DNA of 64,000 nt. Origin: Psammoneis japonica (Eukaryota). The stretch covers positions 124,001 through 188,000 of the forward strand of contig QPGO01000053.1 of the NCBI GenBank assembly GCA_008632985.1. The letters run 5' to 3'. Below, one piece after another: positions 1 to 59,527 of this stretch. Position 1 is the first letter of the stretch. The number at the start of each line of letters is the position of its first letter. The translations under genes and the position numbers were made by a program. Under the pieces are notes generated by a model that saw only the letters and a program-made list of their open reading frames with translations, did not search any database and was not told the DNA's origin.

Positions 1-2662
1 CCATCCTGTGAACAACCACTGCATTGCCTTGCACCATGGATGGATCTTTGATTCCAACCACCCTTTTGCATTGCCAGCAAAGGACATCAAGTGTTTCAAT
101 TGTGGTGTCTTGGGAACGAGGAACATGAGGTGAAATGCGTGGTGAAAAAGCATCTGCAACAAGTGTTCATGGTGCACCAGTTCGAACTTCCCAGGGCGGT
201 GCAGCAGAAGTTGCGTGCAAAAAGGAAAGCTTTTGTGTTGGATGGTCAATCTAGTTGCACAACATTGCCATGTCATTTGTCAGAATTGTTGCTGTCACTG
301 TCCCCTGCTGTGCTCTCATCATCCTCCACAGTGTCTTCCATGTCGTCATTCTCTCCCCCCCACTCACCAGTTTCGATGTCTTGTTCCTCCACCTCGTCTG
401 AACAGTCCTCAAAACAATCCATTGCCTCCCGCTGTTGGATGGCATCCAGAATTCCTTCATGCTCATCATCACTCAAATGACGTGGATGAAGAAGTGAAGC
501 CTCATTCCTGTTGCACGTGCTTGGCAGTTCCAGATTGGCTGATGGTTCGTTGAGCTCAATGTTGGCAATTGCAATTTGCTTGAGCAACACTCTTGTCTTA
601 CATTCCTCAGCATCACCGGGAGTGCACCATCCTCTGGCCCATGGAACAGGGTTAAGATGCATTCCCTTGCAAACCCATTCACCGGCCTTGACAGTTGTGG
701 GTGGGTCAAACTCTTTCCAAACCTCGTCCTCCTGTGCTTTGTGGGGGAGTTCATCCCATTGCAGCAGATAGAATCCCTCCTCAGATTCACAAGACAAAGT
801 GGCATGGCTGTTTGGAACAATTTCCTTGGCCATTTCCTCAGCAAGGAAGTCCAACACAGATTTGTGAACCAACTGCACCTCGTTGGCATCACTCTCATCT
901 GTTTGAATCACCTGACACACTTGCCAATCGTTCAGTCCCTCAAAGATGGGCCACAGTTTGCAAGCTCGGTTGCCACCTGCACATCGTGGCTGCTCTGTTG
1001 GCTCAACATTTTTAACCCAAGGCCATTTCAGCTGATCCAGGCAGGCTTCACAAGCACAAGGAATTCTTCGCATCGCAACCCAACCAATGGGGAAAAGAAG
1101 TTCAAATCGGAAATGGTGCAAGGCTCCAATGCCACAATGGCGCATGCACACTTGCGCCAATCCAATCAACTTGACTTTGATTGAAGAGCCAAGAACTTCA
1201 TCAGCTTCCTGCAGACAATGCACCCTTTGCATTGACTTTCGAAGGGATTCCCTCTTGGCATGTTTTCTGTCACCAACTGCGCCGAAAGCATTCTTGTTCT
1301 TTGTGAGCATTTTGCAACATTCCTTTGCATGACTGTGTGCGGCTACAACACTGTTGTCATCCATGACCAAAGCTTCAGGTCTAATTTTCTTGTCCTTGTC
1401 ATTGACTCCTGCAACAGTTGTGGACTGCATTTCTCGATGTGCGAGTGATTTGATGCAGGCTCCAATGCCATCAACCTCTCCTTTGCCATGTCCAGTTGCT
1501 CCAATGGCACGGTCAAACACAATGTTGCATTTGTGCACAAAGACAGACAACAAGCACAGTGCCAAAGCACATCGGCATTGTTTGGCACAACCATCAGTGT
1601 GATCCCAAATCACAAGCCACACCTTGTGCAGGTTGCAGTTTTTTAACCAGGTGACAAACTTTTCCAAGTGAGCATTGGTGGTGGTGGCATCTTGCTTGGA
1701 AGAGTCAGAGAGATGCGCATGATGTGTTTTCTGAAGCTTGTTGTCAACCATTGCATCACAAACTCTTCCTTTGATTGACAATGTTTGGTTGTTGCCACAA
1801 TGGTTGCCCTGAACTTGTTTGTTGAACTCTGCCTTCTGATGCTCGGAGCAGTCATGAGACGTGAACAGGCTGTTGGGTGTTGACTCAAATGCTTTGCGAT
1901 GCATTTCCATGCAATGATTTTTCCCAAGAATGACCACGTGGGGAAGGTGGTGGCAGAGCTTCCCTAAACTTGGAATGCAGTGCTCTTTTGTAAAGACACC
2001 AACTGGTTTTCAGAACCTTGTCAACAAGGTCCTACGTTTCACCTTTGCGCCCTGGTTCCCATCTGGATCTGCCTCACAAACAGGACATGCTTCCATGTGC
2101 ACACCATGCTTGGAACAGCTTTTTACAGTCAAGTGACGTTGAAACAAAACTTGGGGCACACTGGGACTTTCATTCTGTTCCAACAATGGAGTTGGACAGG
2201 ATGGGCAATGCTCGCATTCACCCAAAACGCATTTCCAATGAGGATGATCCTGACCATTGACATCGCCACAAGTGATGGTTGCAACTGCATCTCGGGCTTT
2301 AGGATGAAGGTGATGGCCGTTGGGGCCAAACGCTTCCTCTTGACAGACACGCATTGTTTCCTCCAATTTGCCAAGGGCACTGTCATGGTTCTCAAGTTCT
2401 CAGGATCCTCACTCGCGAGCTTCAACCGATTTTGCTCCACCTCCATCTCTTTTAAAAGCTTCCTTCGAAACCTGTTCAATGCATCTTGTAGAAAATTGGC
2501 ATTGGTGCAATCGCTGCATTGACACATGCTGCGTTGACTTGCGCTCATTTTTCGACACTGCTTGGGAATCAAAAATCAAAACATCGTGTCACTGATGAGG
2601 GTCTTGCCATTGGCATCACGTGCATGTTCGAATCCGCCAACAGACACAGGCTTCAACATGTC

Positions 2663-3058
2663 GACGCGTTCCAGCCCTGGGTGGGAGCTCGTAGCACTGA
2701 CGTGTGACACAAATAATTTTTATCATCCGTCGTATGTTTTGCACGTACATTTCTACGTATAATATTTAAAAAAAATTGTCCAGACTCGCTGTTTTGCGAA
2801 GCCCCAGACGTTTTACATAACGAATTTATAGAAACAGTAATGCGCCAGTTACATTCTTCAATGTCTGAAGAATGTAACTGGCTAAGTAAAAAACGATGTA
2901 CTTCAATCATGTGCGAGTTTGTGCGTTCGCAAAATTGCCTCATTTTCTGTTGGCGAACATTGACATTCTAATTACTGTATAATTTTACTACGGAGCTCGC
3001 ACGTAGAATTCTACGGGCCCAATGTCACACGGATTCCCACCTACGTCTGGAACGCGTC
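2663..3058. mobile_element. 396-bp MITE, copy 1 (intact)
   Basis: Imperfect TIRs GACGCGTTCCAG-N5-GGTGGGA; 4-bp TSD TGTC (2659-2662, 3059-3062); second copy at 4923-5236 + 10082-10166 in the opposite orientation. Confidence 0.92.
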
Positions 3059-3759
3059 TGTCGTTGTGCAGCTCACGCATGGACACATTGCGCAACCATT
3101 TGTTCACTCGTTTCTTGTTTCCATCTTCATCTTTAATGAGAATCATGTCTCGTGTGTTGGGAGGCTGCACTGTGTCGGGATGATTTGACAACCAGTGCAC
3201 AAATGCCTTTCGGATCTCAGGGGGAACTTTGTGAGGACGCCGACGGGGTTGCACTGAAGACCACATGACATCGTCAGTGTTTAAAAGCAGTGCCTCTCTG
3301 GCAATCTTTCCCTTCTTCATTTGGCGATGAACAGTGCTCCGTCTCAGGCCAAGTGCCTTGGCGCAGTCATGGGAAGACAACTTTTCCTCTTCAGCAGATT
3401 TTTCTGGTGAGCCGGAGATTCCAGCTGCAAGAGCACGGACAAACGATTTTTTGTCGTCGGCGAGGTGTTGACCATTGCTGGTGTCGTTGGCACGTGCCCA
3501 CATTTTGCCCAACTGCTTGGCAATTTGCAAAGCCGCAGCATTTGTTTTCAGCAATGTCAAATTGCAAGCCTGAAGAAATGGGGCTGTTTCGGGAAAATGC
3601 AAAGCACACACAAACGCACAGATTTGTTGTTCTTGAGTGGCGGCGCAAGACAACACTCCTTCTCTCACTTTGACCGCTGCATGACAAAGTGCCTGTTGGG
3701 GATCTTTGTGGGTTGCTTTGAATGCATGAGGATCAAAAGTGGGGCAACCTTGGGAGGCA

Positions 3760-4190
3760 GTGAGGTTGACAGCAGTTGGGTTGGCCGAAGCGACAGAGGG
3801 AGTGACGGTGGCATTGTCAGAGTCAGGGTTGGAGGGAGTGGCGGCCGCTCCTGCAGTTTGCGTTTGGGAGGGGCCTGGAGGTCTTGGCAAGGACAACCCT
3901 GGACAATGAGTGGGGTGTTCCTTGGAGGGGTTTGGGTTGAAAGCAGCCAGGTCGGTGGGAGCAACGGAGGAAGTGACGGCGGCATTGTCAGAGTGAGGGT
4001 TGGAGGGAGTGGCGGCCACTCCTGCAGTGTGCATTTGGGAGGCGCCTGGCGGTCTTGGCAAGGACGACACTGGACAATGAGTGGAACAGGTGTTGGGTTG
4101 AAAGCAGCCAGGTTGGTGGGAGCAATGGAGGGAGTGACGGAGGCAGCAGAGCTCGGGTTGTTCGGATTGAAGGGAGTGGCTGCAGCTGCT
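3760..4190. repeat. ~160-170-bp tandem repeat (~2.4 copies) in the Pro/Ala/Thr-rich N-terminus of the Sola2-like transposase
   Basis: agtgacggNggca recurs at ~3800, ~3971 and ~4132; peptide SLPRPPGxSQxxTAGxAATPSNPxSDNA is repeated. Confidence 0.85.
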
Positions 4191-5236
4191 TCAGCTGCAG
4201 CAACGACATGGTCGGAGACCGTGTCGTGTGTTTCAAGTTCACGACGAGGCTTCTTGTTTTTGCTGTTGCCAGTCCCTGACTTGTGTCGATGGCCAACTCC
4301 ATTTTGCTTCTTCCTCTTGTTGCCCATGATGCACTGGAAATTTGATTGAAAGTGTGCATCGAGAGGGCTGGTGGATGAGACGGATGGCAAGTCGAGAGGA
4401 CACATTTTTTTGGCGTGCTCAATCAAATTAACTCCATTGTGTCTGTAGAAATGAGGCATGTTCGGACGTCAGTTGAGTTGAAGAAGACCAAACACACAAG
4501 CTCCAAAAAATGAAAAAGTGAGTGATCACGAGCATTTTTCACGCAGAGTGGGACACCAGCCGAAAATTACATTTGGCACAATTGACTCCCCAATTTTTGA
4601 TCATTTCGAAAATCAAAAGGTGAGTGTACACCCGAAAACACATGTAAAGTGTACACTCACCCTTCGATTTGGCAAAAAACGGATTTTGAAAAAGTCATTT
4701 GCACTGAACCTAAAAATGAATCGAACCCACGCGGAGCGCCTGGAGCTGGAACAGGCCTGACGACAGTTGCGTGACAAATTCCCAGAGTGCATTTTCATTG
4801 ACCAGGCATTGCTCAACAACCACCAAGAGTTTTGGAACAATCAACGGCAACAATGTTTTCTGCAGAATGAGCACTTTCTAATGGAGTTGCTTTTGTTTTC
4901 ACACCTCAAGCAAACTGCTGATGACGCGTTCCAGACGTAGGTGGGAATCCGTGTGACATTGGGCCCGTAGACTTCTACGTGCGAGCTCCGTAGTAAAATT
5001 ATACGGTAATTAAAATGTCAATGATCGCCAACAGAAAATGAGGCAATTTTGCGAACGCACAAACTCGCACATGATTGAAGTACATCATTTTTTACTTAGC
5101 CAGTTACATTCTTCAGACATTGAAGAATGTAACTGGCGCATTATTGTTTCTATAAATTTGTTATATAAAACGTCTGGGGCTTCGCAAAACAGCGAGTCTG
5201 GACAATTTTTTTAAACATCACACGTAGAAATCTACG

Positions 5237-8200
5237 CACCACGGTTCACCCATAACATTAGCGTCTGTAGAGCGATTTTTTTTGTACGAGCGTAGAATCA
5301 GTACCAAGATTTTGTGTAGGCTTGTGACGACACGACGTCGCACATTTTTTCCGCCTTTCGCTCATTTTTCGTTCGCATCCGAAACCTTCACCATGACGCT
5401 TCGAAGTGTTTCGACGGCCGTTGTAAGTGTTACATGTACAGGCGATCAGTTTATTGCATTATTGACATTCAAAGTCATACCTCACATTGCTTGTTTGTTT
5501 GAAATTGCTTGGAAAGTAAAGAAATTCAGTTGCCAACAACGGGGAAGTAATGTGCAAACAGTTTTAGGGTGCCAACAAGTGTCGCGGCGGGGTTTCGTGT
5601 CGGTTCATCTTGTTGAACCGAGAGCTGGAACATTGTTTCTTTCTCATAATCAAGGTGAGCTGCATGTGACCATTGCAATTCCAAGCAATGCCAAAATGTT
5701 GAAATGTTCTTTTCCATTTTCTCAATTGAAGTTTCTCCTCTCTTTTGCACTCTGAAGAAGAAGCAACAGCACTCGATTGATTTTTGCTTCTGTTGCGGCA
5801 GCAGGGTCTAATGCTGTCATGTGATGATGCAAGAAGGCGAGTGCGGAGGATCTGGGATGAATTGTTGATCCGCTGGTTTGTTGCTTGCTCCGTCAGACAT
5901 CAGTTGTTGCACCAGTCGATTCCACCCGCTGCGCCGAGGAGAAAAGGTGAGAAGTCTTGTCAGTTTTCGTTTCATTGCGGTGCAAAGCTCTTGAATTGTC
6001 GTTTGGACATGCAAGAATGCGCAAGTGTGGTTTGGAGTTTTGCCATTGACTGAATCTTGCTTTTTCTTTCGATGCTGTGCTCAGGTCGGTGTGAGCATCA
6101 AATGGAGCCCACCACGAATCCGGCACCTTCCCCCCCCTCGGCCATGTGGTAGACTTCCTTCCAGTCTAGACACATGAGGGTGCCATCAGGGGTCTGGAAG
6201 CATTCCCCTCCCTCCACCATCTCAGCCAATTGATTCGCCACAGCCACATCATCATTCGCTCTTGTTTGGCTTGAAACGTTGTAAGTGCCGCGCTTCTTCC
6301 CTGTTGCGCTCTTTTCAACAACGGCTTTTGCTTCTGACACGTCTTCTTTCAATCCATTGTGTGGTCTCTGGCACATTGTGTTGATTCGTTGTGTTGTGGA
6401 TGCCACAGACTTGAGCATGTGTCGCATTTCATTTGCGACTGGATGGGCATTCTCGAAGCCCTCCTTGGACAATCTGCCATGCATCCGCCACCGTTCCAAA
6501 AAGCCACACACGTGGGCTTCAAGATGATGAAGCTTGAGGAAGACATTGACCCCAGGGAAGCACTTGCGCCAATTCTTGGACAGTTGGAATAACGCATTCT
6601 TCAACTGCACAAGATCTCGGTCTGTTGGTTTCTTTTGGGATTTCAGAATCTTTGAAACTACGAGCAACGGCCGCGCAACGTTTCTAGAGCTTTCCATTGG
6701 CTCTTTTAAAAGATCATGTAAGTTTTGCTGTTGGTCATCACCTGCATGGCACTGCACCACATTCTCACAAATGGTGTCCCACTTTTCTAAAGATTTCATT
6801 CCGTCCGCGTGGCTCAACTCGCAATCGCTGTGCTCCGCACGAAACCTCACCTGCGCCAACACCTCAAAGCTCTTGTTGTGTGCAAACTCGCCTCTCCCTT
6901 TTGGCTTCTTGCCATTCTTGTCACGGCATGATTGCAGAGATGACAGAAATCGAGCAAGTCCCTCCTGTGACCCATGCTCCTGTCCCAAGTTCGTCATCTC
7001 GGCAGCATGATGGGCCACCCAAACCTTGGCATGCTGCAACTGTTCTTGGAGTTGTTGCACTCGTGCTTCATCTCGGTTGTCTCTTGCCATTTCCTTCTCA
7101 AGGTCCTTTTCTAATTTCCTTTGTGACCTGACATGCTGACTTGAATTCCTTCTTGCCTTCAGCCATCCTGGACACTTCTCCTTGATGCGATTCTCTGCCG
7201 CGGCATGCACACGGTCGACCTCAGCACTCCATGCTGAATTCTTTTCAATCAAACGCATGCGCTTCCTGATTTCATCGGCAAAATGAGTGAAACGCCTTGT
7301 GGCGCGTGCACGGGTGCCATCGTTTCCTTGTGAGGCGGTGCTCTCAAAAGGGGAGCCTTGTGAACGCTCCCGCATGCAAGCCTGTCTTCTTTGTTGGACG
7401 ACGGTAAGTTTCCGTTGAGGGTGCGTTCGGTCCACTTTTGATGAAGCAAATGATTGGCATGATCTCCTTCACGCACAGGGGCTGGTGTGCACTTGACTGT
7501 CGCCATCTCATTTTCGACATCCATTGCTTGAATCCATTTGGGGATGTGGCTTGTAAAGTTCACGTGATCTTCCATGCAAATCAAACAGTTGCATTGATTG
7601 GATGCAGTGCCTTGGCCAGAAACTGTCAGCGACTGCTTTGTGTCGTTGCTCGGAAACCCGATCATTTGCTGGAATGTCGCGTTGATGTTCCCATTGTCCC
7701 CCACTGCGAGTTTGCCTTCTTCGAACTCATGGCGACACACAATTGGCCCGGTGGCACCGACCGAAAGTCTGAACCCGTCACATTCACTGGAAGTTCCATT
7801 CGACTTTACCAACGTGGCGACGAGCTCAATCTTGTTCCCTGGAGCAGTCGCGCAGCTTGAGAGATCTGCCGTGTCAGGCTGTTCTTCATTTGCTTCTTGC
7901 TCTGCCGGCAAAGCGGCATCTGAAAAGGAGGCGTCGACTGCAATGCTGTCAAACGACACTGAATGTTCAGCATTGCTTGAAGAGGAAATGAACTTGACGG
8001 AAGCGCGTTTGCAACAGCTGCGTCCATTGCCGGCGATGAATGTGATCATGTGGAGGGCATCATCCAACAGATCTTGAAAGAATGCTGCCGTTGGAAACAT
8101 CACATCACAGGCAGAGGCTCGAAGGTTGAACTCGCATTCTGCTGCACACTCGCACTGGCACAGGGGCTGGCAATTTGTTCCTTTATTTCCGTCTTTGCGA

Positions 8201-10081
8201 TTTGCCACGCGAATCAAAAGGGTGAATGCATCACCTCCTTTGTCACTGCCAAATGCTGCCACGAGTTTGTTCGTTTTGGAACTGAAGGACTCGGATTTCT
8301 CGAATTTGCCAGCAATGTGGCACACCTCGGCAAGCTTCTCCAAAACACGTTGCGGTTGCTTTGTCCACCAAAATGCCCTCAGAGCTTTCTTGTTTCCGTT
8401 CTTGTCTATCATCATGGGTGTTAGAGTCACTCCATGCGCCAGACTGCCTTTTGATTCGCATCGTGAGATTTTTTTCTTCAGCTGGGTAGAGAATGTTCGA
8501 ATGTTGAGATGAGCCTGAATGAACCTGTCCAGCCGCAGCACTCCGTTTAGACTCATCTTGACACAGTCTCTAAGTGCTGCGACCCTTGGCTCATCGAGCA
8601 CGAGATCTTGTGTGCGAATTAGAGCACAATCGAAACTGCTTGCAACCAGTTTCAAAAGGGTTTGGTCCTCATCGCTGTTTTCTTGAAGCAGTTCAATTGT
8701 TTGGTTGACTGTCTTTGACCGATTCTTCGCATTTCGTGCACTTGTTTTCGCTGTGGGTTTTTGTGGTTTCGGCAACGCCGCATGCAGTCTCTCTGTTTTG
8801 CGGTTTGCCTTGTCCAGGACGGTCAACTTTGTGATTGCGCTTCCGGATTGATCAGACAATGATTGCAGCATTAGATGGGCAAGTGTCTGCAATTCTACAG
8901 ATGGCAGAAAATCCTTGTCATCACGCACTGTCGCAAGCAACTGTGTTGCTGCACTAGTTGCAGTCGGTCCACCTGTTTCAACAGATGACAACAGCATGCT
9001 GCAACCAACTCGAGAGATGCCTTTGAGACGAGGAAACTTTGTCGGGCCTTGCGCCACATTACAAGGGCTCGGTGTGACTGTTTGTTTCCTGCCAGCGTCT
9101 TCCTCGCTTGGATTGCAAGGGCTTGGCGTGACTGTGCGTTTCCTGCCAGCATCTTCCTTGCTCTGGAAGCTGCCATCCTGTGCGTCGCAACGGCTTGAGT
9201 CCATTTCTTCGGCGGTGGGGGCAACATTTGCAGCATCAAGGGCACCTTCTTCAGTGACAGCTGCTTTGGAATTCAAAGAATGACTGGAGAGGAAACTCAT
9301 TTGATCCTTGTTAGAAGCAATGACAAGATCACAAGGTGCACAGTTTGACGGTTTTGGGATGAGAGCATTGTCGTCCCTGGCTTCTAGCACGGTGACAAAG
9401 AATGCACCAGAATGCTCTCCAAGTTTGAGCATTGGAAATCTCTGAAGAAGCTTGTTGACATGACAAAACTTAGTGAACGCCAAGTCAAACGCATCCTCGG
9501 TGATGTCGAGCTGCTCCAGAAGAGTGACAGCTTTGGGGAAGCGCTTTCTTTGTTTCTTGTTGAGCTTGGGGGGCCACCACAGTTTCCCAGGACGAAACTC
9601 CATGTTCTTGATTTGTTTTTGCATGTGGGCAATGAAAGACTCCAACCGAGCCACCACTTCTGTGCCAAAACAAGCGACAAAAAAAGCGCATTGGTTGGCT
9701 GCAAGGAATGCATCGAAACAGGATTCCAAAAATGTGTCGGCGACAGCAACAACATTCCCGCTTCCAACCCTCGGCAAAGGCTGGCCATGTGAGCTCAACA
9801 CATGCCAAGGTTCGCATGTGGGGCCGTCATGCCGAGGGTGTTCATGCCTTTACTCGACATTGCGCAACGTTTTTCGCTCATCGTCGATGCGAAAAAAAAA
9901 AGTGTGTTGTGTTGCGATCTTTGCTTCTGGTGCATCACTCGTAGATTCTACGTTCTCCCTTCGACAGGTGTTTTTCGCTGAGAATTCCAAATTCCCAATG
10001 ATGGTCTGCATGTGCCACCAAATGTTTTTAGTCAAATGATTTGACGCCAATGCCACCTCACGCAGGAGTTGAACCGTGGTG
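5237..10081 (-). mobile_element. Chapaev/Transib-like (RAG1-type transposase) DNA transposon, 4845 bp
   Basis: 12-bp TIRs CACCACGGTTCA (5237-5248) / TGAACCGTGGTG (10070-10081). 4-bp TSD TACG (5233-5236) / TGCG (10082-10085). The empty site is visible in MITE copy 1. Confidence 0.85.
6098..9801 (-). pseudogene. RAG1/Transib/Chapaev-type DDE transposase (~1200 aa; frameshift near 7295)
   Basis: FGSDKGG (first D); NDTKQSLTVSGQGTASNQCNCLIC resembles RAG1 [40 protein letters not shown]...GRLSKEGFENAH resembles RAG1 HKTLAHV...GAWASEGNESGN. No Tyr in the 850-aa ORF. Confidence 0.8.
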
Positions 10082-10170
10082 TGCGTGCGAAACATGCGAT
10101 GGATGATAAAAATTGTTGTTGTCACACGTCAGTGCTACGAGCTCCCACCTGGGGCTGGAACGCGTCTGAT

Positions 10171-11586
10171 GTGGGGTGCCATTCAGACATGACCACAGGC
10201 TGGGAGGGGGGCACGCAAACATTTGATCACCTGCACATGTGTTGCCTTCTTGAAGGCACGCAATGGCATTCGTCAGAAAGTGCATGACACGGGTTTGAGC
10301 AAAGACAAGATCTGCATCAACCCCAAGCTTCTTTGTGTTCTTCACCGCCAGGAGTGGGGGCAGCTGCTCCGGTCTTGCGTGTCCATGCTCAATTGCTTCC
10401 CGGGTGCTGTTGAGGTTGTCATTCTCGTTTTCTAAGCCACTCAGGGCTGGAAGAGGTTCATGCCTCGTCTGAATGCAGAACCAATGCCCACTGAACATTG
10501 AATCAGCACATGATGCAAAAACTCATCCAAAGCGTTGCAAACACAAATCACGAATGCACTCATCCCGCTGGCTCCACTGATGCAGAGTCGGACCCTGTTC
10601 ATGTGCCGATGTGGGGCCAAAAGTTGCCAACGTCATGCCACATGGATCGCATTGAGTGAGCATCTTAATGGCATGGGTGTGATGATGCCCGTCCCAAACA
10701 GCTCACTGCATCATGTGTGCAAAAAGATGTCGGGCCCCATCATCTGCACTCGCTGGTCCAGATCCAAGATGGCAACACTGGCAGATGGATGTGTCAATGA
10801 AGGAGCATGTGTCTGGCTCCCTGCGTTTCGGTGCACCGACGTGGTTCCATGACACCTGTCGCCGCACTCCTCCTGCCGTGCATGTTTTCTTCTTCTTAAG
10901 ACAGGCACAGATTTTGTCACGAAACATGGGAAAGCATGGAACCCACATGGCAATTGCCTCTGGCCCAATCAAGTGATGGAATTTCACATCAAGACACATC
11001 ACAAGAAATCGGCATCCTTTTTCCCACCTGTTCTCGGAACCCCAAAATCCATCGAATCGGCAAGCTTCTTGTGAGCCACAGTTGTGGACATTTTGGAAAG
11101 CATGCAGATGAGAAGCTCCTCGGAGGTAAAATGGCAGAAACTCCCATTGTGCTGCTGACTGTTTTGAGGAACCCAAACATCCTTGTCCAATTCAAAAATT
11201 TGCAACAAAGCCCGGAGTTCACCCTTTGAGAGCCGTGTCTCTTGGTCTGATCGATCGTCACATTTCAAGAAATCAATTGATGTGTCCTGATTTTTGGGAA
11301 TAAGATGACCAGACATTGCACCTTGTTCATCCAGATCTGGCAACGCCTGATCAAGCTCCACACACACAATTGCGAGATCAAAGCGCCTGCATGCTTTCAC
11401 AATGTGCTGGAGGGCGAGCAGGATTAAAGCCCTGATTGACAATGCTGCCAATGACTCTGCATTTTCTTTTGTCACATTCAATGCCACCTTTCCCATCCCA
11501 AGCTGCATCTCATAACTTTTCAGGTGCAAAACAAGACCCTTCTGCACCTGCTTTGCACACATGCACTCTTTGACCGTGGACGACAT
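10171..11586 (-). pseudogene. PIF/Harbinger (HARBI1-like, DDE_Tnp_4) nuclease
   Basis: Motifs SEELLICMLSK, SFIDTS, WDGHHHTHAIK..PCGM..FGP, ADS, REAIEHG and LTNAIACLQEGN..F.CPPPSL, with frameshifts and in-frame TGA stops. Confidence 0.75.
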
Positions 11587-12624
11587 CGTCGCCCATCTCT
11601 TTCGTGGCAAACTCCGCCTGGAAAGTTTGCGCCTCCCCACCTGTGACAGGATTGCACTGAACCACACTCACGCAACATCCATCATACAACATCTGTCATC
11701 CACAGTCCACACCTCGTTTCTTTGGTGATTTTGAGCTGCAGATCGATTGTTTGTTGGTTTGCCGTGCTGCGCTGCACCTTCGAGCCCCCACACTCGGCTT
11801 CTCCTTTTTGCGGCAAGGCTGGCACAAGCAAAAACTACAAAGCAAATGTGGCGCATCCCACTTTTCATGTTCATGATGGATGCGACTGAACAAGAACGAC
11901 CTCGACGGAATTCCCAACCATCCGGCAATCGTGTTTTTATCATGGCTGTCGTGCTTCTCGCCCCAAACCAAACAGCGCCGTTTGGCCCCGTGCTGTTCGT
12001 CGCGGCACATTGGAAACCATCTGCTTCAACACGTCATCATCAGAAATGCCACAAATGATTGCGCAATTGAACTGTCAGGGTTCTCAGGCCGTCAAATGCC
12101 ACTCTGGGGGAAGTCTCCAGCCAGCTGCTGGCTGAAGAATTTTGTGTAGAAATTGCACTGAAAGAGTCTGTCAATCTGTGCGTTTGGGGGTTTTGGTGAA
12201 CGCTGGACAGACTCGTCTTCTTTTGCATACACGTAAAAATTGTACTTGAAAAACCCCCAACCCGAACCCCATGCAAGACTGACCCAAGAAGCGCGGGAAA
12301 GTTCTTGGCGAACAATCACCGTCGAAAGATAGAGCGAAGATTGAGAATGAAAAGAATGTTATTTGACGGGACTGCTTCGCGAAGGAGATGGCAGTCGAGC
12401 AACACTGACGGATCATTTCATGATAAGAAGCGCCTTTTATTCTTGCCTACTGTACGTTGTTACATTGTGTTCAGTCTCCATCGCACTGTGCGTCTGTGTT
12501 TTGTTGCATCTCCCTCCGCAAGCAACTTACGGTGCCATCTTACCAACCCCCCTCGATTCGTTGTTTTGTTCTTTCGTAGAAACGTGTCAATCCACTCAAA
12601 ACTCGACCATCAAGGAGAAAAACC

Positions 12625-25405: not shown

Positions 25406-25454
25406 CTCTCTCTCCTCCTCCTCCTCCTCCTCCTCCTCCTCCTCTCTCTCTCTC
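25406..25454. repeat. (CT)n/(CCT)n microsatellite
   Basis: Directly visible. Confidence 0.95.
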
Positions 25455-25489
25455 AGAGAGTGCTCGAGAAGAAGCCTCCAGTAGAGAAG

Positions 25490-28400
25490 AGAGAGGATGT
25501 CCCTGCCTGCAATGCATCAAATGCTCGCCTTGGGCCTTGGGTTCGTCGCTGGCTTTGGAATCAAAGTTCCCTCCATCACTCTGCCTGAAGAACGCAAAAC
25601 CACAATGAGAAAACAAATGACAAGCTGAAACGAATGCCGCCGAAAGAGCGGGCAGTGCAAAGGCTCTTTCCAGCTCAACAAAAAATGTCCCAGTTGGGGA
25701 AAAATTTTTTGAGTTGTTCCTCTGCCTCTCTCTGCAGTGGATGATGGAGATGTGCTGACGAGGGGATGTGGTTGGTTGCCAAGAGAGGGAAACATCATCC
25801 TGCCCCCCCCCCCCCACGCTGCTCACCCACAAAGGCCAAAGCACCTTTCAAAGCTGAAAAAACCTGGGACAAATCAGCAAACAACTGGCAACTCTGGGGT
25901 GACAGACTTGCACTTGTCTGTCATTCCAAGCAGTTTTGGCAGGGTCTGCAGCTGCCCAAGTGGCTCAAACAATGCCTTTGTTGAAGGCTCGACAGCACTG
26001 CCAAAAGTGTCAAGCAATCACCCACAGGACATGTTGGCAGAAGCTTCTTCAACTTCTCTCCATCACTGCTAACAACCTTTTGTGAACAGAAGCAAGTTGT
26101 GGGATGTTTTGTGTGTGTGCAACACTGCTGCTCACAACAAGCAACACAAATTTTTTAATCTGTTGCACAGAAAATTGTGCTTCAATGACAGTGTGCTGTG
26201 CACTTTGCAGCTGTCTTCTTGATGCCTGGGGTCTTCAAGGCATGTCAAGAACAATTTGCCTCTTGGGGGGTTGCTTCAACAATGGTGTGCATGCACAAAA
26301 GAAAAAATGAGTTTGTCTCAAAAATGTGTGGCCAACCCACTTGCGCTCTTCTTGTCAACAAGTTTTTGGGGCTGTTTCATGCTGACAGTCATTCTTGCAT
26401 TGCTCTGTTCTGGCCATCAAGCACTTGTGTGTGATTTCTGTGCCACCCTGCACAATTCACCATGCACCTGGCAAAACAGGGCAAGCTCTCTCTCTCTCTC
26501 TTGCTGACCTCTGAGGCAACCCTTGCTGATGGTTGCACTGCAAGAAGGGCTGCACTGTTGCTTGTGTGCCATGCCTGTTGTGCGAATGTCAGAGTGCAAG
26601 AACACCAAATGTGGTGGACTCATCTCTTTCCTGTGCCAAGCCCATCAACAGATGTGTGGAATGAAGAAGCGCTGCTTTTGTTTCTTTTTGGTTCTCTCAG
26701 CAGCATCACAAAGGATGAGTGTGGCAATGGCAGTGACACCACAGAAATCGTGGCCCTGTCTTGCTGGTGCAGGCTTTTTCAGGTCAACAAGTCGGTGCAA
26801 AAGATCACATGAGAGATTTGTTGCACAATGTGCAGATGTTTTCACAGCCACAAGCTGAGCAACTCTGGTCAACAAGAGTGCGAGTGTGGCACTTGCACAA
26901 GGTGGCTCAAAAATGTCTTTCAAGTGAGCCAACCTGTCAAAAACCAAGTGCTTTGTTTGTTCCTTTTTAGCAGGGGATCCCATGTGTGCCATTGTGCATC
27001 CTGATCTGACTCTGGCAGTGCTGGCAAGTGATCCCACAATGAGGTGCAAATTTGACCATTCCACACAAAAGGCAATTTGGGCATTGGATTTCTAACCTGT
27101 TCATTCTAAGGCATTTGTTCAAAAGTGCCTCAGCTGGCACATCATGAACTGCACAAAATTGCAGACAATTCTGAAAGCAACAGTTGTGCCCACCAAAGAA
27201 AAAAATGTTGGAACATCTGGGTCAGAGGTGGTTTTTGCATGGCAGATGGACAATGTTGCAGTGGAAGATCATGCACTCGCTGGTGATTGTGGACAATGTG
27301 GTGAATTTGTGTTTGCAACTTGGTTTGAGTTGCGAGTCCAGTGCTCACTTTTTGGTGTCTGCACCTGGTTGACATGGCAACAGTGTTTGGCATCAGCATC
27401 AGCCATGAGTTTGCAAGCCACATTGTGAGAGTTTGGGGTCAGCGAGACTGGACAGCCCACACACTGGTCGGCAAGCTGCAGCACAGAAGCTGAAAAGTCA
27501 CAGTGCGTTGCTCAAAGGTGTGGTGTCATCAAAAGGCTGGGAAGTCAACAGGAGTCCACAAAGAAAAAGGCCAGAAAGTCCGTGGGAATCCAAAGGAGGT
27601 GCACCTCACATTGGTGGACTGCAGCAAACAAGCCAGCTTGATGAGGGCTGCAAAGATGTGATCTCTGAAAGGGGGCCTTTCTGTTGAAGAAGCTGTCAAG
27701 GGTCTGTTGAAAGAGGGTGTGGGGCAAGGTTGCATCAGGGTTGGCAAGACAGAGTGTGCAGCTGTTGGCAAGCCATGAAGCTCCAACACAAGTCCCAGAA
27801 AATGTGGGCAAGGACACAGCTGAGTGCAGAAACATGAAGACAGTGTGTGTGTGACACCATTGCTGAGTCAGGATGACACATGCAGATGGTGCATTGCATT
27901 GAAACCACAAGGAAGATCAGCAAGCATGTTGAAAGAATGCAGGTGCCAGCATCTCAGAGGCAGGAGAGCATGCCAAGAGATCAGACTGCAGCCTGTTGGG
28001 AGACGCCACATCAGAGAAGGACGAGGCAATCTGGGGCAAGCAACGTGACCACTGTGCAAAACAGATCAAGCTCAATGAGAAGCAAGCAGCGCTGATGGCA
28101 TGACTGGCTGGTCACCATGAAACACACACCCAATCATGTGGTGAAACATGTCTGCCACTGGTGCAGGCCCTGCCAACAGCAATCATTTGGTGCCAAAATT
28201 TGGGTTGTGGGATTGAACTGTGTGTCAAAAAATGGATTTGAACATTTGTCCAGTGAGGCCACCTTGTTGGGCAAAATTGCATGTAAATGCACACATTTGT
28301 GCAAATGGGTGCATGCAACTTGTGCAGAATGTGCCAGCCTTGGGTTCTTAGAAATGCTCTGCCATTTTTCTGCACCCCCCTCACAAAAAACCCATGCACT

Positions 28401-29810
28401 GTCTTGCACAACAGTGCAAAATGCACTGTGAAGATTGCGCTGTTGCTTGTGTGCAATGCTTGCTCTTTTGTGCAAATGCCAGAATGCAAGGAGACGCCAA
28501 CAAAGGGGGGGCAGCCATGGGCTCCTGAACTGGCCAGTCAAGAACCATTTGCCTTTGATCCCATGCAGCATGCCATGTGCCCACACCCTTGTCCAACTCT
28601 GCTCCAGCACATGCAATCTCAAGGTGGGATGCAAGTTGACACTTTTGCACAAAGAGCACTTTGGGGCTGCTCTGAACACACACAAAGCAAACTTCATGTG
28701 AGTGCTTTGTGCACACTGGATTTTTTGGCGTGTGTTCATTCTCAGGCATTTTTTGTCCAAAGCTCCAACAGGTGGCACATTGTGAACAGAACAAGAAAAG
28801 CACTGCAAATGTGTGTGTCCATTCTAAAAACAGTGCGTGTGTGTGTCCACTCTAAAAACAGTGCTTGTGCCCACAAAAAAGAGAGAGTGACCACATGCAA
28901 GAAGCAGGGAACAAGTGTTGGCTCTGAGCCCTCCCTCCAGCTCTGCACAGGTGTCTGAAAAGAGCCTGAGCAACTGGCAGAAGAAAAAGTTTTTTGCACC
29001 AAGGCACCCAACAGAGGAGAGAAGGTGTGGCCTTGAAGTGTGCAAATGCGCAAATGTCATGCACCTCCAAACTGCATGTTGAAGCAAGTGCGCACAAAAA
29101 CCCAACCTGACCTGCAACTGTGAGAATCATGCTCAATGTTGCAGCAGGTGTGATGGCCAAGCTAAAGCCAAACAACAGAGCCACAGCTTGCTTTGAACTC
29201 TCCCCTTTTCCTTGCCTGCAATGTGGTGCAAGAGCAAGCAGAAATCAAAAATGCAAAAACAAACTGGCTGATTGGCAGCAAAAGCAATGAAAAATGTGAG
29301 CCAGTGACAACAAAAATGCAAAGCTTTTTGCTGCTTTGGCTTGCAATGCATGTTCCAGAAAATGCACACTGCGCTTGCCAACAAGCACAACGAAGCCAAA
29401 GCACTTGTGAGCAGCCAGCAGCGGCTGTTGCAGAGAAGCACCAAAACAGCTTCGTTGCCTCACTTTGTGGAAAGAGCTCATAAGAGCTTTGGCCTGCTGG
29501 CACCTTTTGTGCAAAATGTGCATGCCATGGCTGTTGCAAAAACATGTTCACGTGCTCTGGTGCAAAACAGAGCCCTCCCAATGTCCAAACTTGCCAAGTC
29601 CGCAGAACACCCCAGCATGCTTTTGCACGAAGAAAAGATCTTCCTCAGAAAGGTCTTTCCCTTTTCCCTCCTCTGCACACTGCCAAGACTCCCATGCGAT
29701 GTTGGGCACTCTCATCAGACTGACAATCCAGCCAGGGTGCTGTTGCACAACATCGCCACAGCAGCTGGGGTCCGGGTAGGTGGCAAGACGAAACAGGCAG
29801 AAAGTCACAG
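25490..29810. mobile_element. Heavily degenerated repeat/transposon relic of unknown family
   Basis: About 4.3 kb with only ~11 TA dinucleotides by eye, few CG, and excess CA/TG. No coherent ORF. Same composition as the identified transposons at 1-12 kb. Confidence 0.6.
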
Positions 29811-29811
29811 A

Positions 29812-29834
29812 TGTGTGTGTGTGTGTGTGTGTGT
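29812..29834. repeat. (TG)n microsatellite
   Basis: Directly visible. Confidence 0.95.
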
Positions 29835-29880
29835 CACAATTCGGACATTTTTTATTTAACAAATGTGTAACATTTAACTA

Positions 29881-29983
29881 GAAAGCCATTAAATGGACAA
29901 CAACATTTATGTTGAAAGCTGTTAAATGGATTGCAACATTTGACATGTACAAAGCTGTTGAATGGACGACAACATTTATGTTT
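29881..29983. repeat. Three imperfect ~33-37-bp tandem units (aaagctgttaaatggacaacaacatttatgtt)
   Basis: Units start at ~29881, 29914 and 29951. Confidence 0.8.
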
Positions 29984-30156
29984 GGTTCTTGCATAAGAAG
30001 ATGAAGAAACACAATCACTCCCGATGCGAACCGTCGTTAGTAACCGCGAACCATGTTCATGTCAACAATAAAACATGCTGTCATTTCACATTGCCCCGAG
30101 AATTGAAAACTCGCTCATAAAACCCAAGAACATTAAAAACAAATTCTCGTTTTACC

Positions 30157-35337: not shown

Positions 35338-38140
35338 TCAAAATTCATCAAAGGTGACGTCTTCGACAAAACCGACCGAATCAACGTGATCAAGTCTAAA
35401 CTCTTCAAAAAGCAATCTCACCGATTCGTCATAAGCACTAAGGAATTCTTCCTCTGTAGGCGCTCGATCCGCAGCGTCAGCTGGGCAATAGCAGGTATCA
35501 AGGGACTCTACGAGAAGGCGTTCAAACGGAAACAATGAAGTCGCTTTCCGTCTCCGGTCATCAAAACACCTTGATAGACTGGCGCATCCGCGGCATCGCC
35601 CTGTGGTACGGTGGAGATAACGGAAGGGTTTCCCTTCCAACTGCCTATTCCTGTAGATGTCTGGAGGGATGATAATTTCCACAGAATCAACCACACGGAA
35701 TTGAGGGTCGCACAACTCGCCACTCAATGCATTCACCTGATTGTAGATTTCTTTGTATTCTGCTGCCAAGGTGTTGATCTCGGCACTCGTGACCTCTTCA
35801 GGGAACCCATTGTATTCAACGACGACTTCACACTGGAATTCTGTAATTTCCCCCGCACAGTCAACCTCTTCGAGTTCAGCTATGCTTTCAACTGAATCAA
35901 CGTTCACAAGAACATCACTATAAACGAGATCTTTGACAGCGTCGTTGTATTTGGCTGTAAAGTAACTCAAGGATGGGGCCGGGCAATTGCAGACCTTGAT
36001 TTCGCTGTTGTACCGATGCATCTCATTTGAAAAACTGTCTTTCTGGTTGCGCGACTCTTCAATTTCTAGAGTTCTGCGTCGTTTGTTGTCAAAAGCTGTA
36101 CTACGACCTTCACAACCATGACAGCGTCCGGAAACATGATATAAGCGCCTTCGCGATCTAACAAGCTCCCTCCGACCTGCTGAAGCCGTCAACCCCGGAT
36201 TGATTTCTAGCTTGATATCGACACTGTCGATAAACAACGAATCTGGGCCACAAGATACGAATGTAATGTCATTGTACGTCTCGATGAATGCATTCTCAAG
36301 TGCGCTCAGCTCCTCTGGCGTAAGGTCGTCAGGCCTTTCTCCAACAAGGTCAACTAACAACTTGGCTTCAAAGGTGTCAAATGGCTTACTTTCACATTCT
36401 CCGTTTTCTGGCTTTTCTGGTCTTGGTGCTGGGTTTCCCCCTGGACTTGGGACTGGGTCTCCTCCTGGGCTTGGTGCTGGGCCTCCTCCTGGGCTTGGTG
36501 CTGGGCCTCCTCCTGGGTTTGGAGATGGGTCACCTGGCTTACCTCCGTTTACTGGCTCCGGTCTTCCTCCGGGGCTCGGAGAAGGTTTGGGTTCTTTCCC
36601 AACTCTCGGAGATGGACCGCTTCCGTCCTTTGATCTAGAGCCCGGCGAGCCCGGAGAACCCGGAGATCCTCGAGAATCGGGTGGTGGACCAGATGAAGCA
36701 CTCTCTCTCTTTCCTCCCTTACCCTTGCTCTTGGCTGCCGGCCGCCTCCAGCAGACGGGCTCTTTGCGGAAGATGGGGCACCAGAACTAGGCTTCGTTGG
36801 CGGGGTCGGTTTAGAAGGCGGTCCTGGCGATCCAGATGACGGACTCTTGGTAGAAGAAGCGCCGCCTCCGGTAGACGGGCTCTTGGCAGAAGATCCGCCT
36901 CCAGTAGATGGGCTCTTGGCAGAAGATCCGCCTCCAGCAGATGGGCTCTTGGCAGAAGATCCGCCTCCAGCAGATGGGCTCTTGGCAGAAGATCCGTCTC
37001 CAGTAGATGGGCTCTTGGCAGAAGATCCGCCTCCAGCAGATGGGCTCTTGGCAGAAGATCCGCCTCCAGAAGACGGACTCTTGGCAGAAGATCCGCCTCC
37101 AGAAGATGGGCTCTTCGCAGAAGATCCGCCTCCGGAAGAGGGGCTCTTTGCAGAAGATCCGCCTCCGGAAGACGGACTCTTGCCAGAAGATCCGCCTCCA
37201 GAAGACGGACTCTTGCCAGAAGAACCGCCTCCAGAAGACGGACTCTTGCCAGAAACCCCCAGGACCTCTTGCCAGAAGAACCGCCTCCAGAAGACGGACT
37301 CTTGCCAGAAGAACCACCTACAGAAGACGGACTCTTGCCAGAAGAACCAGCTACAGAAGACCCACTGCTTCCACTGGAGCCAGGTGAGCCGCTTTCGCTC
37401 TTGCTGCTTGAACCACCCTTGCTCTTGCTGCTCGAAGCAGAGGAACCGCTTTCACTCTTGCTGCCTTTCTTACCGCTCTTAGATTTGCTAGACCTCGAGG
37501 AAGAGCTCGACGAGCTTGAACTGGGAGAAGGCGGCTTCGGTGAAGGCGACGGCGGTTTCGGGGACGGAGATGGTGGCTTCGGTGAAGGCGACGGCGGTTT
37601 AGGGGACGGCGATGGTGGCTTTGGTGAAGGCGACGGCGGTTTAGGGGACGGCGATGGTGGCTTCGGTGAAGGCGACGGCGGTTTAGGGGACGGAGATGGT
37701 GGCTTCGGTGAAGGTGAGGGTGGAGGAGGAGGAGGCGGTTTTGCAACGGGGGGAGGAGGTGGTGGTGGCCGCGGCGGTGGGTCGTCGCTGCTGCTGCTGC
37801 TGCTACTCCCCTTCTTGCCGCCTTTGCCACTACTGCCGCTTCCCTTTTTGCCACCTTTGCCACCACTGCCGCTTCCCTTTTTGCCACCTTTTCCACTGCG
37901 GCTACTCCCTTTCTTGCCACCTCTCAACACATTCTCTGCATTCTCCGTTGTGCATCCGCTGCAATTACAATCACAGTAGTTGACCGATCGCTTGTCAAAT
38001 TCGGATTCGAAACACTCACAATCAACGCAACAACTCAGGACCCGGCCCTCCAGCATTCGAGTCATCTTTTGTGCGTCGACAGGTGCGACGTATTGAGCGC
38101 TGAGAAGCACGGCGGCTACTGAGGCAACCGACACTCTCAT
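35338..38140 (-). CDS. Secreted Ser/Gly/Pro/Lys-rich repeat protein with a duplicated C-terminal Cys-containing domain; frameshifts near 37262 and 36742
   Basis: Signal peptide MRVSVASVAAVLLSAQYVAPVDA; RXL sites; GKGGKKGS, (PKPPSPS)n, (SGGGSSAKSPS)n and PAPSPGG repeats, then two copies of L..[AE][FY]...YN.....C.P. Confidence 0.78.
36835..37340. repeat. 33-nt coding tandem repeat (~15 units)
   Basis: gggctcttggcagaagatccgcctccagcagat-like units. Confidence 0.95.
37525..37715. repeat. 21-nt coding tandem repeat (PKPPSPS), alternating as a 42-nt unit
   Basis: ggcttcggtgaaggcgacggc and ggtttaggggacggcgatggt alternate. Confidence 0.95.
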
Positions 38141-58759: not shown

Positions 58760-59527
58760 CTAGAGAGACACAACGTGAATGCCCAGTGGGAACTCGACAG
58801 GATAGATATTGGTGACGCGAATGGTATAACCAGCATCAGGCGGAGTTTCAAACTCGCAGAACAGCGGAGTCTTGTACCCGTTCGAAGCATAGTACTCAAT
58901 AGATTGCTTAATGTTGTTGGGTCCCTGCAACAACTCAAGCCTGACATTAATGTTTCGAGCGCCTTCACCAGCCTTGAGGAAAACCTGTACCTTGTCCCCA
59001 TAATGCGTAAACGTCTTGACGGCGCCACCACCTTGAACCAACTGACTTGGTGTTTCTGAAATGGACTCGGCTGCCTCAAGGATTGGAGAGGGAGTACCTG
59101 GTTGTTCCTTGGCCACGCGAGCCCGTAAGGGAAGCTCTTGCGGACCAGTGTTGAGCAGCCGGACCGTGTCAAATTCGCCTTTTTGTTTCAGCACGACGTT
59201 AAACGGGAAGGTTGCGCCATCTTCAAGATACACCTTCAAATTGGCTGGCTGATAATTGGGACCCGACCATAGCGAGATCTCAGAGTATGCAGGACGGCCA
59301 CTGGTAGTCACCTTTACGTGAACATGCTTGGAGCTAGGATCGAGATCCCATGTTCTGAGAGAATCCCCCTGGATAAGCACGTCGGAGAAATATGTTTCCG
59401 TTTGCAAGCTCATATCTAATTTGGTACAAGAAGAAGGTGCCTTGGATAAGGTAGGCTGTATCACAAATGCAGAAGCAGAAGAGGCGCACGCCGCAACGAG
59501 CGCCATGGCAGAGGTAACGAGCTTCAT
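58760..59527 (-). CDS. Diatom-type protein with bipartite leader and two internal repeats (xQGxxxxT...V.V.L...L..GP)
   Basis: MKLVTSAMALVAACASSASA-FV; IQGDSLRTW...LWSGPN and VQGGGAVKTF...LLQGPN; ELPL/EFPL. Confidence 0.8.
   Translation of the reverse strand: MKLVTSAMALVAACASSASAFVIQPTLSKAPSSCTKLDMSLQTETYFSDVLIQGDSLRTWDLDPSSKHVHVKVTTSGRPAYSEISLWSGPNYQPANLKVYLEDGATFPFNVVLKQKGEFDTVRLLNTGPQELPLRARVAKEQPGTPSPILEAAESISETPSQLVQGGGAVKTFTHYGDKVQVFLKAGEGARNINVRLELLQGPNNIKQSIEYYASNGYKTPLFCEFETPPDAGYTIRVTNIYPVEFPLGIHVVSL

Follow-up and report, generated by a model that had tools for sequence, protein, structure and literature searches.

The closest described counterpart of the pattern reported here comes from the chlorarachniophyte Bigelowiella natans, in whose mutation-accumulation lines 231 of 302 nuclear mutations lay in two regions of integrated viral DNA (Mettrop et al., bioRxiv 10.64898/2026.01.13.699255). 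According to the main text of that preprint, 230 of the 231 de novo mutations in the viral regions were A-to-G or T-to-C changes, all of them on TpA and in some of the lines only. The target was single-copy, and TpA-poor coding sequences of B. natans were enriched for DDE and reverse transcriptase (RT) domains. The authors proposed an adenine deaminase, a homologue of ADAT2, as the agent and likened the process to fungal RIP (repeat-induced point mutation) (bioRxiv 10.64898/2026.01.13.699255). We have analyzed a 64,000-nt stretch of the diatom Psammoneis japonica (assembly GCA_008632985.1, contig QPGO01000053.1, positions 124,001 to 188,000; hereafter the window), which holds blocks of DNA, most of them repeated and with transposon relics among them, that are almost devoid of TA dinucleotides. 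The few TA that survive there are arranged in a highly non-random way: sites of the form YTAR (Y, pyrimidine; R, purine) last longest and RTAY sites are nearly absent. This pattern is probably the fossil footprint of a DNA-level hypermutation from TpA to TpG/CpA that struck transposon copies and left host genes untouched.

Several further systems share single features with such a process. RIP is a DNA-level defence working through one transition in a dinucleotide context, on both strands and separately in every copy, and short repeats escape it; it changes C to T mainly at CpA and makes TpA. TadA, ADAT2-ADAT3 and the base editors derived from TadA attack an A preceded by U or T. The natural substrate of TadA and ADAT is a tRNA loop, the natural site of bacterial TadA being U-A-C-G, and most eukaryotic tRNAs with A34 have a purine at position 35. 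ADAR hyper-editing and the enzymes APOBEC3/AID represent the restriction of selfish elements by mutagenic deaminases with a nearest-neighbour preference; ADARs act on double-stranded RNA and favour a 3' G, and APOBEC/AID deaminate C. Decay of 5-methylcytosine (5mC) at CpG gives the same TG and CA products as the loss of TA.

The window has a GC content of about 48% and is nuclear diatom DNA; among ordinary eukaryotic genes it contains a frame at 58760-59812 (-) that matches the Pfam diatom pyrenoid-shell family (E = 7.7e-53). A 500-nt scan outlined four sharply bordered TA-poor blocks (1-2662, 3059-4922, 5501-~12150, and 25501-29800; Table 1), in which the observed/expected (o/e) ratio of TA is 0.0-0.19, as against 0.3-1.0 elsewhere in the window, and that of TG/CA is raised to 1.4-2.1. 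About 85% of the TA in the blocks has been lost, and as to the base that precedes the lost A, TA is the one step affected. ApT is not depleted (in 2-kb bins, AT o/e is 0.70-1.09 within the blocks as against 0.66-1.12 in the remaining sequence), just as the original prediction, made from the sequence by eye, had stated. On the plus strand the TG/CA counts per block are 257/275, 157/119, 648/585, and 480/453; since TG about equals CA in every block, both strands were hit. CG is low as well, to unlike degrees (compare blocks 3 and 4 in Table 1), and its loss shows no flank preference (CCG 0.48, ACG 0.49, TCG 0.52, GCG 0.62).

The TA loss is restricted to repeats. Summed contig depth, which is not a copy number, marks blocks 1 to 3 as repeated DNA: at 80% likeness it amounts to 2000-4700 over 1-4340, save for the bin 2605-3038, which contains a miniature inverted-repeat transposable element (MITE)-like insertion (67,451), and to about 100-400 over 5643-9982, where single-copy sequence would have about 60-80; over block 1 it is 2000-3600, single-copy pieces having about 60. 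The TA-poor state of block 3 stops near 12147, close to repeat ends at 12105-12139. Block 4, with a TG/CA o/e of 1.55-2.07 up to 29500 and of 1.77 in the bin 29501-30000, has no frame of at least 250 residues and is flanked by a (CCT)n/(CT)n tract at 25410-25455 and a (TG)n tract at 29810-29835.

We sorted all TA by their flanks into YTAR, RTAY and a mixed class made up of RTAR and YTAY. In ordinary DNA of the window RTAY is more frequent than YTAR, the scarcest class: the 1715 TA of the rest of the window comprise 294 YTAR (17.1%), 904 mixed, and 517 RTAY (30.1%). The pooled blocks (1-2662, 3059-4922, 5501-12000, and 25501-29800) have 85 TA, of which 43 are YTAR, 39 mixed and 3 RTAY (Fisher test against the rest of the window, p = 8.8e-12 for YTAR and 1.9e-9 for RTAY; chi-square against background 69.0, p = 1e-15). 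The hand counts behind the original prediction, about 24 TA with about 13 YTAR and no RTAY in 6540-9480 and about 8 YTAR among about 11 TA in 25.5-29.8 kb, agree closely with the exact ones: the former interval (Table 1) has as its YTAR sites 3 CTAA, 3 CTAG, 1 TTAA, and 6 TTAG, and the 12 TA of 25500-29800 divide into 9 YTAR, 3 mixed and no RTAY. From the NT and AN dinucleotide frequencies of 6540-9480 itself, 7.5 YTAR (P = 0.017) and 4.5 RTAY (P = 0.0069) would be expected there, and this interval alone differs from the rest of the window with p = 4.9e-5 (YTAR) and 3.8e-4 (RTAY, Fisher tests). The contrast persists against background outside long open reading frames (ORFs; 675 TA, 135 YTAR, 375 mixed, and 165 RTAY, i.e., 24% RTAY), against the TA-normal MITE islands (65 TA, 7 YTAR, 45 mixed, and 13 RTAY, i.e., 20% RTAY), and against 80 environmental relatives of one transposon protein (12584 TA, 18.1% YTAR and 31.2% RTAY).

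The flank rule is a graded preference as to the 3' neighbour, T > C > G > A, plus a protective A at position +2. Expressed as density in the blocks relative to background, survival in the ten strand-symmetric NTAN contexts spreads more than 50-fold, from ATAT (0; none against 120), ATAC/GTAT (0.012), ATAG/CTAT (0.033) and GTAC (0.042) over ATAA/TTAT (0.12) and CTAC/GTAG (0.15) to CTAG (0.20), GTAA/TTAC (0.21), TTAA (0.43) and CTAA/TTAG (0.61). A uniform depletion of all ten contexts, the outcome against which the original prediction had staked its rule, is rejected (chi-square 89.8, 9 degrees of freedom, p = 1.8e-15). Taking the 3' flank of TA on one strand as a half-site, so that each TA has two, we find that the +1 base at the 170 half-sites surviving in the blocks is A in 44%, G in 30%, C in 20%, and T in 6% (background 22, 22, 31, and 26%, respectively), and that an A at +2 is present in 86 of the 170 (51%, background 27%). 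Half-site survival is lowest for TATA (0), TACT (0.034), TATT (0.036), TATC (0.045), and TATG (0.055), followed by TACG (0.069) and TACC (0.074), and highest for TAAG (0.32), TAAA (0.41), and TAGA (0.44).

The table of ten contexts roughly fits the product of two independent strand terms, with survival of about 0.65 for a 3' A, about 0.44 for G, about 0.2 for C and about 0.07-0.18 for T; by our own arithmetic from this table, the relative rates for 3' T, C, G, and A are roughly 5 : 3 : 2 : 1, provided that the ancestral composition was background-like. In mechanistic terms, each strand would be struck independently at the A of 5'-T-A-N-3', at a rate set by the 3' neighbour in these proportions and lowered further by an A at +2. 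Independent hits on the two strands with such a 3'-neighbour preference mean that RTAY goes first and YTAR last; RTAY would be erased from both strands, and TA in T-tract/A-tract contexts (TTYTARAA-like) would last longest. The supposition in the original prediction that RTAY is hit twice thus fits two independent strand hits. YTAR, which it had called resistant, is in fact slowed, its density in the blocks being 0.2-0.6 of background, and the division into purine and pyrimidine flanks, right in direction, simplifies a graded order that reaches to +2.

The low TA content is a derived state. Of the 3766 residues encoded by long frames of the blocks, 6 are Tyr (0.2%), as against 2.1% in the other long frames; they include 4.3% Cys (2.2% in other frames) and 4.3% His (1.9%). 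All of the 172 database homologues have ordinary Tyr contents (0.5-4.1%, median 2.6%). For the frame 276-2009, 22 homologues were found (best E = 4e-97), and where these have Tyr (n = 353) it shows Cys in 30.6%, His in 29.2% and Tyr in 5.4%, whereas the homologues facing each other's Tyr have Tyr in 63.5%, His in 4.4% and Cys in 0.4%. At the 18 columns with at least 40% Tyr among homologues it has 7 Cys, 6 His, 2 Phe, 2 Leu, and 1 Tyr, these columns including ones in which 19 of 19 and 21 of 21 homologues have Tyr; at the 13 conserved Tyr columns (at least 70%), Tyr is kept once and replaced by Cys in 6, His in 4 and Phe in 2. Other conserved residues fared better: 132 of the 214 conserved columns are kept, Tyr columns counted in, and among them Trp in 4 of 4, Gly in 14 of 16, Lys in 7 of 8, His in 7 of 8, Asn in 2 of 4, and Gln in 6 of 7. 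Conserved Arg has become His or Gln in 5 of 19 columns, which is the component due to CpG decay. At six homologue-Tyr columns of the frame 7252-9849 the residues are His, Cys, Cys, Glu, Cys, and His. Since Tyr is encoded by TAY, Cys by TGY and His by CAY, a replacement of Tyr by Cys or His reads as TA to TG or TA to CA. The TA depletion is a mutational footprint and not native composition, and that this footprint follows the context rule given above is very likely. Frames of 456 to 866 codons stay open in these dead genes because, under the genetic code, A:T-to-G:C transitions never make a stop from a sense codon. The family of the frame 276-2009 itself stays unclassified; a lead from Atlas to DUF7869 was unconfirmed, and 22 members of its homologue alignment have no significant match in Pfam.

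To judge from relatives elsewhere, the transposon family as such is not low in TA. Among the 80 environmental relatives of one transposon protein the TA o/e ranges from 0.19 to 0.97, and none of them repeats the hypermutation signature. The relative with the lowest TA, from a sediment metagenome (L051:1-1182, encoding a relative of the frame 276-2009), has a TA o/e of 0.19, a CG o/e of 0.03 and a TG/CA o/e of 1.78; its 16 TA (4 YTAR, 10 mixed, 2 RTAY) are too short a record for judgement, and it may be a weaker case of the same process.

Copies within the same genome display the change site by site. At one site three copies of the MITE end read TA, TG and CA. In 10 of the 40 variant rows listed, of 1157, a TG or CA of the window corresponds to TA in other contigs, and at two places a TG of the window corresponds to CA. 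Because other copies keep TA, or have CA for TG, the hits were independent and came after copying; together with the replacement of Tyr by Cys and His, these copies bear out the context-dependent mutation of TA to TG/CA that the original prediction had postulated. Self-BLAST of the window gave no further paralogous pairs among the blocks, and polarization within the window consists of the 87-nt MITE end alone. Between 5207-12130 and contigs of X1, the one public run that contains the stretch, there are 0-2 differences per kb, at a word depth of about 60-fold, which excludes gross assembly error; runs X2 and X3 contain next to none of the window's words, and no RNA run was listed as containing it.

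Not all repeated DNA of the region was affected. The two MITE-like copies lying between the blocks are 96-97% alike and retain 20% RTAY, the arm 4923-5215 being 97% complementary to 2766-3058, and the summed contig depth of this repeat is 57,000-67,000, as against about 60 for single-copy DNA. One contig bridges 2662 to 3070 and represents another copy of the surrounding element without the MITE. The assumption that the 293-nt TA-rich arms are parts of a transposon whose body is TA-poor was rejected, because their 12-nt termini, the alignment and the contig lacking 2663-3069 identify them as separate MITE-like insertions. The segment 12153-12586, which adjoins block 3, is repeated (summed depth 1481) and TA-normal, with RTAY sites present.

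Table 1. Coordinates of the TA-poor blocks, open frames and MITE-like copies in the window (o/e, observed/expected ratio).
Feature	Position	Strand	Remarks
TA-poor block 1	1-2662		TA o/e 0.03-0.15; CG o/e 0.26-0.49; multi-copy repeat
578-aa open frame	276-2009	-	Relic of a repeat-encoded protein; 1 Tyr, 31 Cys, 32 His
Young MITE-like insertion, 396 nt	2663-3058		12-nt terminal inverted repeats GACGCGTTCCAG; TA-normal, not hypermutated
TA-poor block 2	3059-4922		0-5 TA per 500 nt up to 4500; multi-copy repeat
400-aa frame	within 3059-4922	-	In block 2
Second MITE-like copy	4923-~5236		In TA-normal island 4923-5500; opposite orientation
TA-poor block 3	5501-12150		TA o/e 0.07-0.19; CG o/e 0.49-0.91
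456-aa frame	6101-7468	-	C-terminal part of the same transposase as 7252-9849, in another reading frame
Interval of the original prediction	6540-9480		Inside block 3; 24 TA: 13 YTAR, 11 mixed, 0 RTAY
866-aa open frame	7252-9849	-	0 Tyr; relic of a probable Chapaev-type (DUF1280, RAG1-related) DDE transposase
Older MITE-end copy	10080-10166	-	Inside block 3; ACA, GCA, GCA for ATA, GTA, GTA of 2663-2749
TA-poor block 4	25501-29800		TA o/e 0-0.06 up to 29500; CG o/e 0.04-0.33

Two further features of the window lie apart from the blocks. The region 36742-37781 is GC-rich (57-61%), contains 11-14 tandem 33-nt units and about 10 copies of a 21-nt unit, and has long open frames on both strands. A segment of about 165 nt is common to 59435-59599, where it lies in the 5' part of the pyrenoid-shell-family gene, and 62463-62612, which lies 3 kb away and adjoins a GT61 glycosyltransferase frame; the two are 82% identical, and the segment is possibly a duplicated leader or N-terminal exon.

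Survivors alone cannot separate an attack on the A of T-A-Y from one on the A of R-T-A; the products can. Over all blocks the product 4-mers YTGY/RCAR are enriched 1.45-fold and YCAY/RTGR 1.19-fold, a comparison that assumes a background-like ancestor. Of the 7 informative variant rows in which other copies polarize a mixed-class site, 6 changed as the T-A-Y reading predicts, from TAY to TGY or from RTA to RCA (4568 did not), the one mixed site polarized by the MITE alignment did so as well, and Cys exceeds His about 2 to 1 after allowing for homologue composition, by our own estimate. Pointing the other way, the asymmetry of products is absent from block 1-2500 (1.46 vs. 1.44), pyrimidine-preceded Tyr codons gave 2 Cys and 2-3 His, and the polarized sites are few, about 9 for the A of TAY and 3-4 against, a ratio to be expected from a 4-6-fold difference in rate. 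The A of TAY, named as the target in the original prediction, thus agrees with the variant rows, the MITE site and the pooled 4-mers, and finds no support in the flat profile of 1-2500. The T-A-Y reading is favoured, not settled.

The likeliest chemistry would be an enzymatic deamination of adenine to hypoxanthine in DNA, which would be read as G at the next replication. Such a deamination would serve genome defence, as proposed for B. natans, and CpG decay (CG to TG/CA) would be a second, separate process in the same elements. We see about an even chance that the agent is a DNA adenine deaminase with this role. A change from A:T to G:C is in itself silent on which base was attacked, and an enzyme acting on the T of 5'-R-T-A-3' might equally cause T-to-C changes, e.g., by oxidation to a hydroxymethyl-uracil-type base, which mispairs with G, or by a glycosylase-linked repair error. 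On the opposite strand, the partner of the T in R-T-A is the A in T-A-Y, so that all counts fit this explanation as well, and some protists have heavily modified thymine that is enriched at TpA. We know of no modified thymine that gives near-quantitative T-to-C changes, and the authors of the B. natans study favour adenine deamination in their main text (bioRxiv 10.64898/2026.01.13.699255); attack on thymine is, in our view, unlikely.

For a deaminase acting on adenine, the tRNA enzymes offer a resemblance at best, and the preference of TadA and its derived editors for TA, which the original prediction had taken as support, does not carry that weight. The U-A-C-G site of TadA matches T-A-Y and fits in part, TACG half-sites surviving no less often than other TAY half-sites, and a tRNA loop is unlike the transposon DNA concerned here. 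The amphioxus enzyme BjADAT2, the one ADAT2 for which deamination of adenine in DNA has been demonstrated, favours GAA, and the adenine base editors ABE7.10, ABEmax and ABE8e are reported as broadly compatible with the context of the target adenine (PMC10354150). In the 18 long frames outside 5501-12000 and 25501-29800, Pfam found no deaminase family.

A passive context bias in silent, methylated, late-replicating repeat chromatin, with no dedicated enzyme, would be another source of the pattern; error-prone repair synthesis with a WA-type hotspot (W, A or T) after mismatches derived from 5mC, or N6-methyladenine decaying at a methylation motif that resembles RTAY, are examples. CpG decay is indeed present in the same blocks, with a CG o/e down to 0.04 and with the Arg replacements in 5 of 19 columns mentioned above, RTAY is palindromic, as methyltransferase sites often are, and pooled RTAY lies somewhat below the two-strand product model (0.01 observed, about 0.04 modelled). 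CpG decay, however, cannot remove TA, and its extent differs from block to block with no relation to TA loss: the latter is similar in 5501-12000 and 25501-29500, blocks of mild and of severe CG loss, and the two processes are therefore uncoupled. AA trinucleotides are undepleted in the blocks (AAA/TTT 1.13, AAG/CTT 1.09), unlike what a WA hotspot would leave, and the conserved Lys, Asn and Gln columns are kept to the extent given above. Moreover, a TA loss of such size with sharp borders far exceeds known passive biases, and TA-normal repeats lie inside and beside the TA-poor domain. We regard a passive bias as quite unlikely.

Editing of RNA followed by copying back, in which UA in double-stranded RNA of transposons would be the target of an ADAR- or ADAT-like enzyme and the edited RNA would then be reverse-transcribed and integrated, is very unlikely. 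Sense and antisense RNA could yield symmetric TG and CA. To our knowledge, ADARs occur in animals only. A 5' U preference is named as typical of ADARs in the Discussion of the B. natans preprint (bioRxiv 10.64898/2026.01.13.699255). The 3' order found here is T > C > G > A, with TAG/CTA surviving better (0.22) than TAT (0.04) or TAC (0.09), a pyrimidine preference and not one for G; a non-coding MITE end inside a block is mutated too, and the best-characterized element is a probable DDE DNA transposon. An exhaustive HMMER search brought up 151 homologues of its 866-residue frame (best E = 3e-64), for which another homologue search had shown none, and the frame 6101-7468 is 34% identical to residues 780-1160 of one homologue (P0001, E = 7e-57). 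With Pfam DUF1280 the 866-residue frame itself reaches E = 0.038 (14 bits, below the cut-off of 25); of its 12 best homologues, 4 have DUF1280 at E < 1e-4, of which 2 pass the gathering score (26.6 and 35.1 bits) and 2 more are just below it. DUF1280 has been described as comprising putative Chapaev transposases, in a clade with RAG1 (PMC3985635), and Atlas points to RAG1_RNase_H for this family, as a lead only. A PDB profile search with the homologue alignment gave RAG1 (E = 0.15-0.33) and MutS2 (E = 0.13), none of them significant, and Pfam has no significant match, RT domain included, in the 10 block frames scanned. From these sequence matches, the element at 6101-9849 is probably a Chapaev-like DDE DNA transposon. 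Cut-and-paste transposition of DNA involves no reverse transcription, so that RNA editing is an unlikely route and the process would act on DNA. The relic also holds a tandem 51-54-nt duplication (9058-9108/9112-9162), whose two copies differ by TA/TG and CG/TG transitions (TTAC vs. TTGC, CTCGG vs. CTTGG).

That no mutation took place, and that the blocks reflect either a sequencing or assembly artefact at modified bases or the native composition of foreign elements avoiding UpA, is most improbable. Modified bases can, it is true, produce systematic base-calling errors. Suppression of UpA and CpG with an excess of UpG and CpA is common in RNA viruses and cytoplasmic RNAs (PMC3829696). Conserved Tyr turned into Cys and His and Tyr-free frames unlike any working protein family, TA-normal relatives elsewhere, paralogues of the same genome that differ as TA, TG and CA and, as regards an artefact, the agreement of the X1 contigs, though X1 may be the source sample, have largely refuted this explanation.

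Hypermutation of DNA by a defence system would place this locus closest to B. natans. In both, TpA alone changes to TpG/CpA, on both strands, in foreign DNA within bounded regions and apparently not constitutively, and TpA-poor clusters rich in CpA and TpG go with DDE and RT domains in B. natans and with a probable DDE transposase here; the window shows TA changed to TG/CA with other sites spared, in bounded repeat DNA and on both strands. The host there is a rhizarian and here a diatom. In B. natans the mutations were seen live, in episodes with a de novo rate raised roughly 1000-fold, and hit single-copy inserts of giant-virus and virophage origin in which depletion is still only partial (Rho TpA 0.45), whereas the diatom blocks are a near-saturated fossil (o/e 0.03-0.19) in relics of DNA transposons. 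The words context, flanking, neighbour, trinucleotide, and diatom are absent from the main text of the preprint, so that, supplements apart, that text describes neither the hierarchy TAY > TAR nor the effect of +2 (bioRxiv 10.64898/2026.01.13.699255). No diatom with such a signature turned up in literature searches, and the main text of the Phaeodactylum tricornutum mutation-accumulation paper has neither "TpA" nor "transposable".

Compared with RIP, the direction is the mirror image: TpA is destroyed and CpA/TpG are made, the blocks having a TpA o/e of 0.03-0.19 with TG/CA at 1.4-2.1, and the TpA/ApT index is about 0.1 here. RIP fills genes with stops; here long frames survive, because A:T-to-G:C changes cannot create stop codons. 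With regard to a RIP-like trigger by duplication, blocks 1 to 3 are multi-copy, yet the commonest repeat (396 nt) is unmutated, which fits a length threshold or a younger age. ADAR and APOBEC/AID share with the proposed process the deaminase-based restriction of selfish elements and differ from it in that a DNA transposon, an A:T change and a 3' pyrimidine preference are involved here. CpG decay shares the blocks and the products and has none of the flank preference of TA loss. It is conceivable, though we would put it somewhat below an even chance, that diatoms have a "mirror-image RIP", i.e., a natural system of adenine deamination in DNA that recognizes transposons or foreign DNA and turns T-A-Y into T-G-Y on either strand until the element has died, and that this system is homologous to the B. 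natans process and belongs to an old genome-defence module of the SAR (Stramenopiles, Alveolata, Rhizaria) supergroup.

Several points weigh against hypermutation of transposons by an adenine deaminase. The whole analysis covers one 64-kb window, the evidence for repeated DNA comes from blocks 1 to 3, the variants used are 40 of 1157 rows, and the X1 contigs may not be independent of the assembly. Neither an enzyme nor a lesion was observed, and the 3' context of the known DNA-active ADAT, GAA, differs from the order TAT > TAC > TAG > TAA of the blocks (PMC10354150). The 396-nt MITE, the commonest repeat here, is untouched though it lies inside the TA-poor domain; with this MITE spared and 12153-12586 repeated yet TA-normal, the process cannot strike every repeat at all times. 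The sparing of young or short elements fits an episodic process, as described for B. natans, or a length threshold, as in RIP; candidate triggers are length, age, chromatin and episode, and the untouched young MITE copies inside the domain are at most an indirect hint of an episodic one.

If the proposed reading holds, the diatom case is an addition to a system known so far from one preprint in another lineage. A second major marine algal lineage would then have TA-targeted A:T-to-G:C hypermutation of selfish DNA, and what is now a single-species curiosity, described in one 2026 preprint, would become a candidate for a widespread eukaryotic defence. To go by our literature searches, no quantitative profile of the specificity of such hypermutation preceded the flank rule given here; this rule can be compared with the de novo mutations of B. 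natans, 231 in number, and used for screening candidate deaminases, and would serve as a fingerprint for finding the enzyme. A natural DNA-adenine deaminase would be of interest to base-editing work. From such frames of dead transposons, gene prediction will yield "orphan proteins" that lack Tyr and are rich in Cys and His, and the TA o/e together with the YTAR/RTAY ratio constitutes a cheap marker of such regions in algal genomes.

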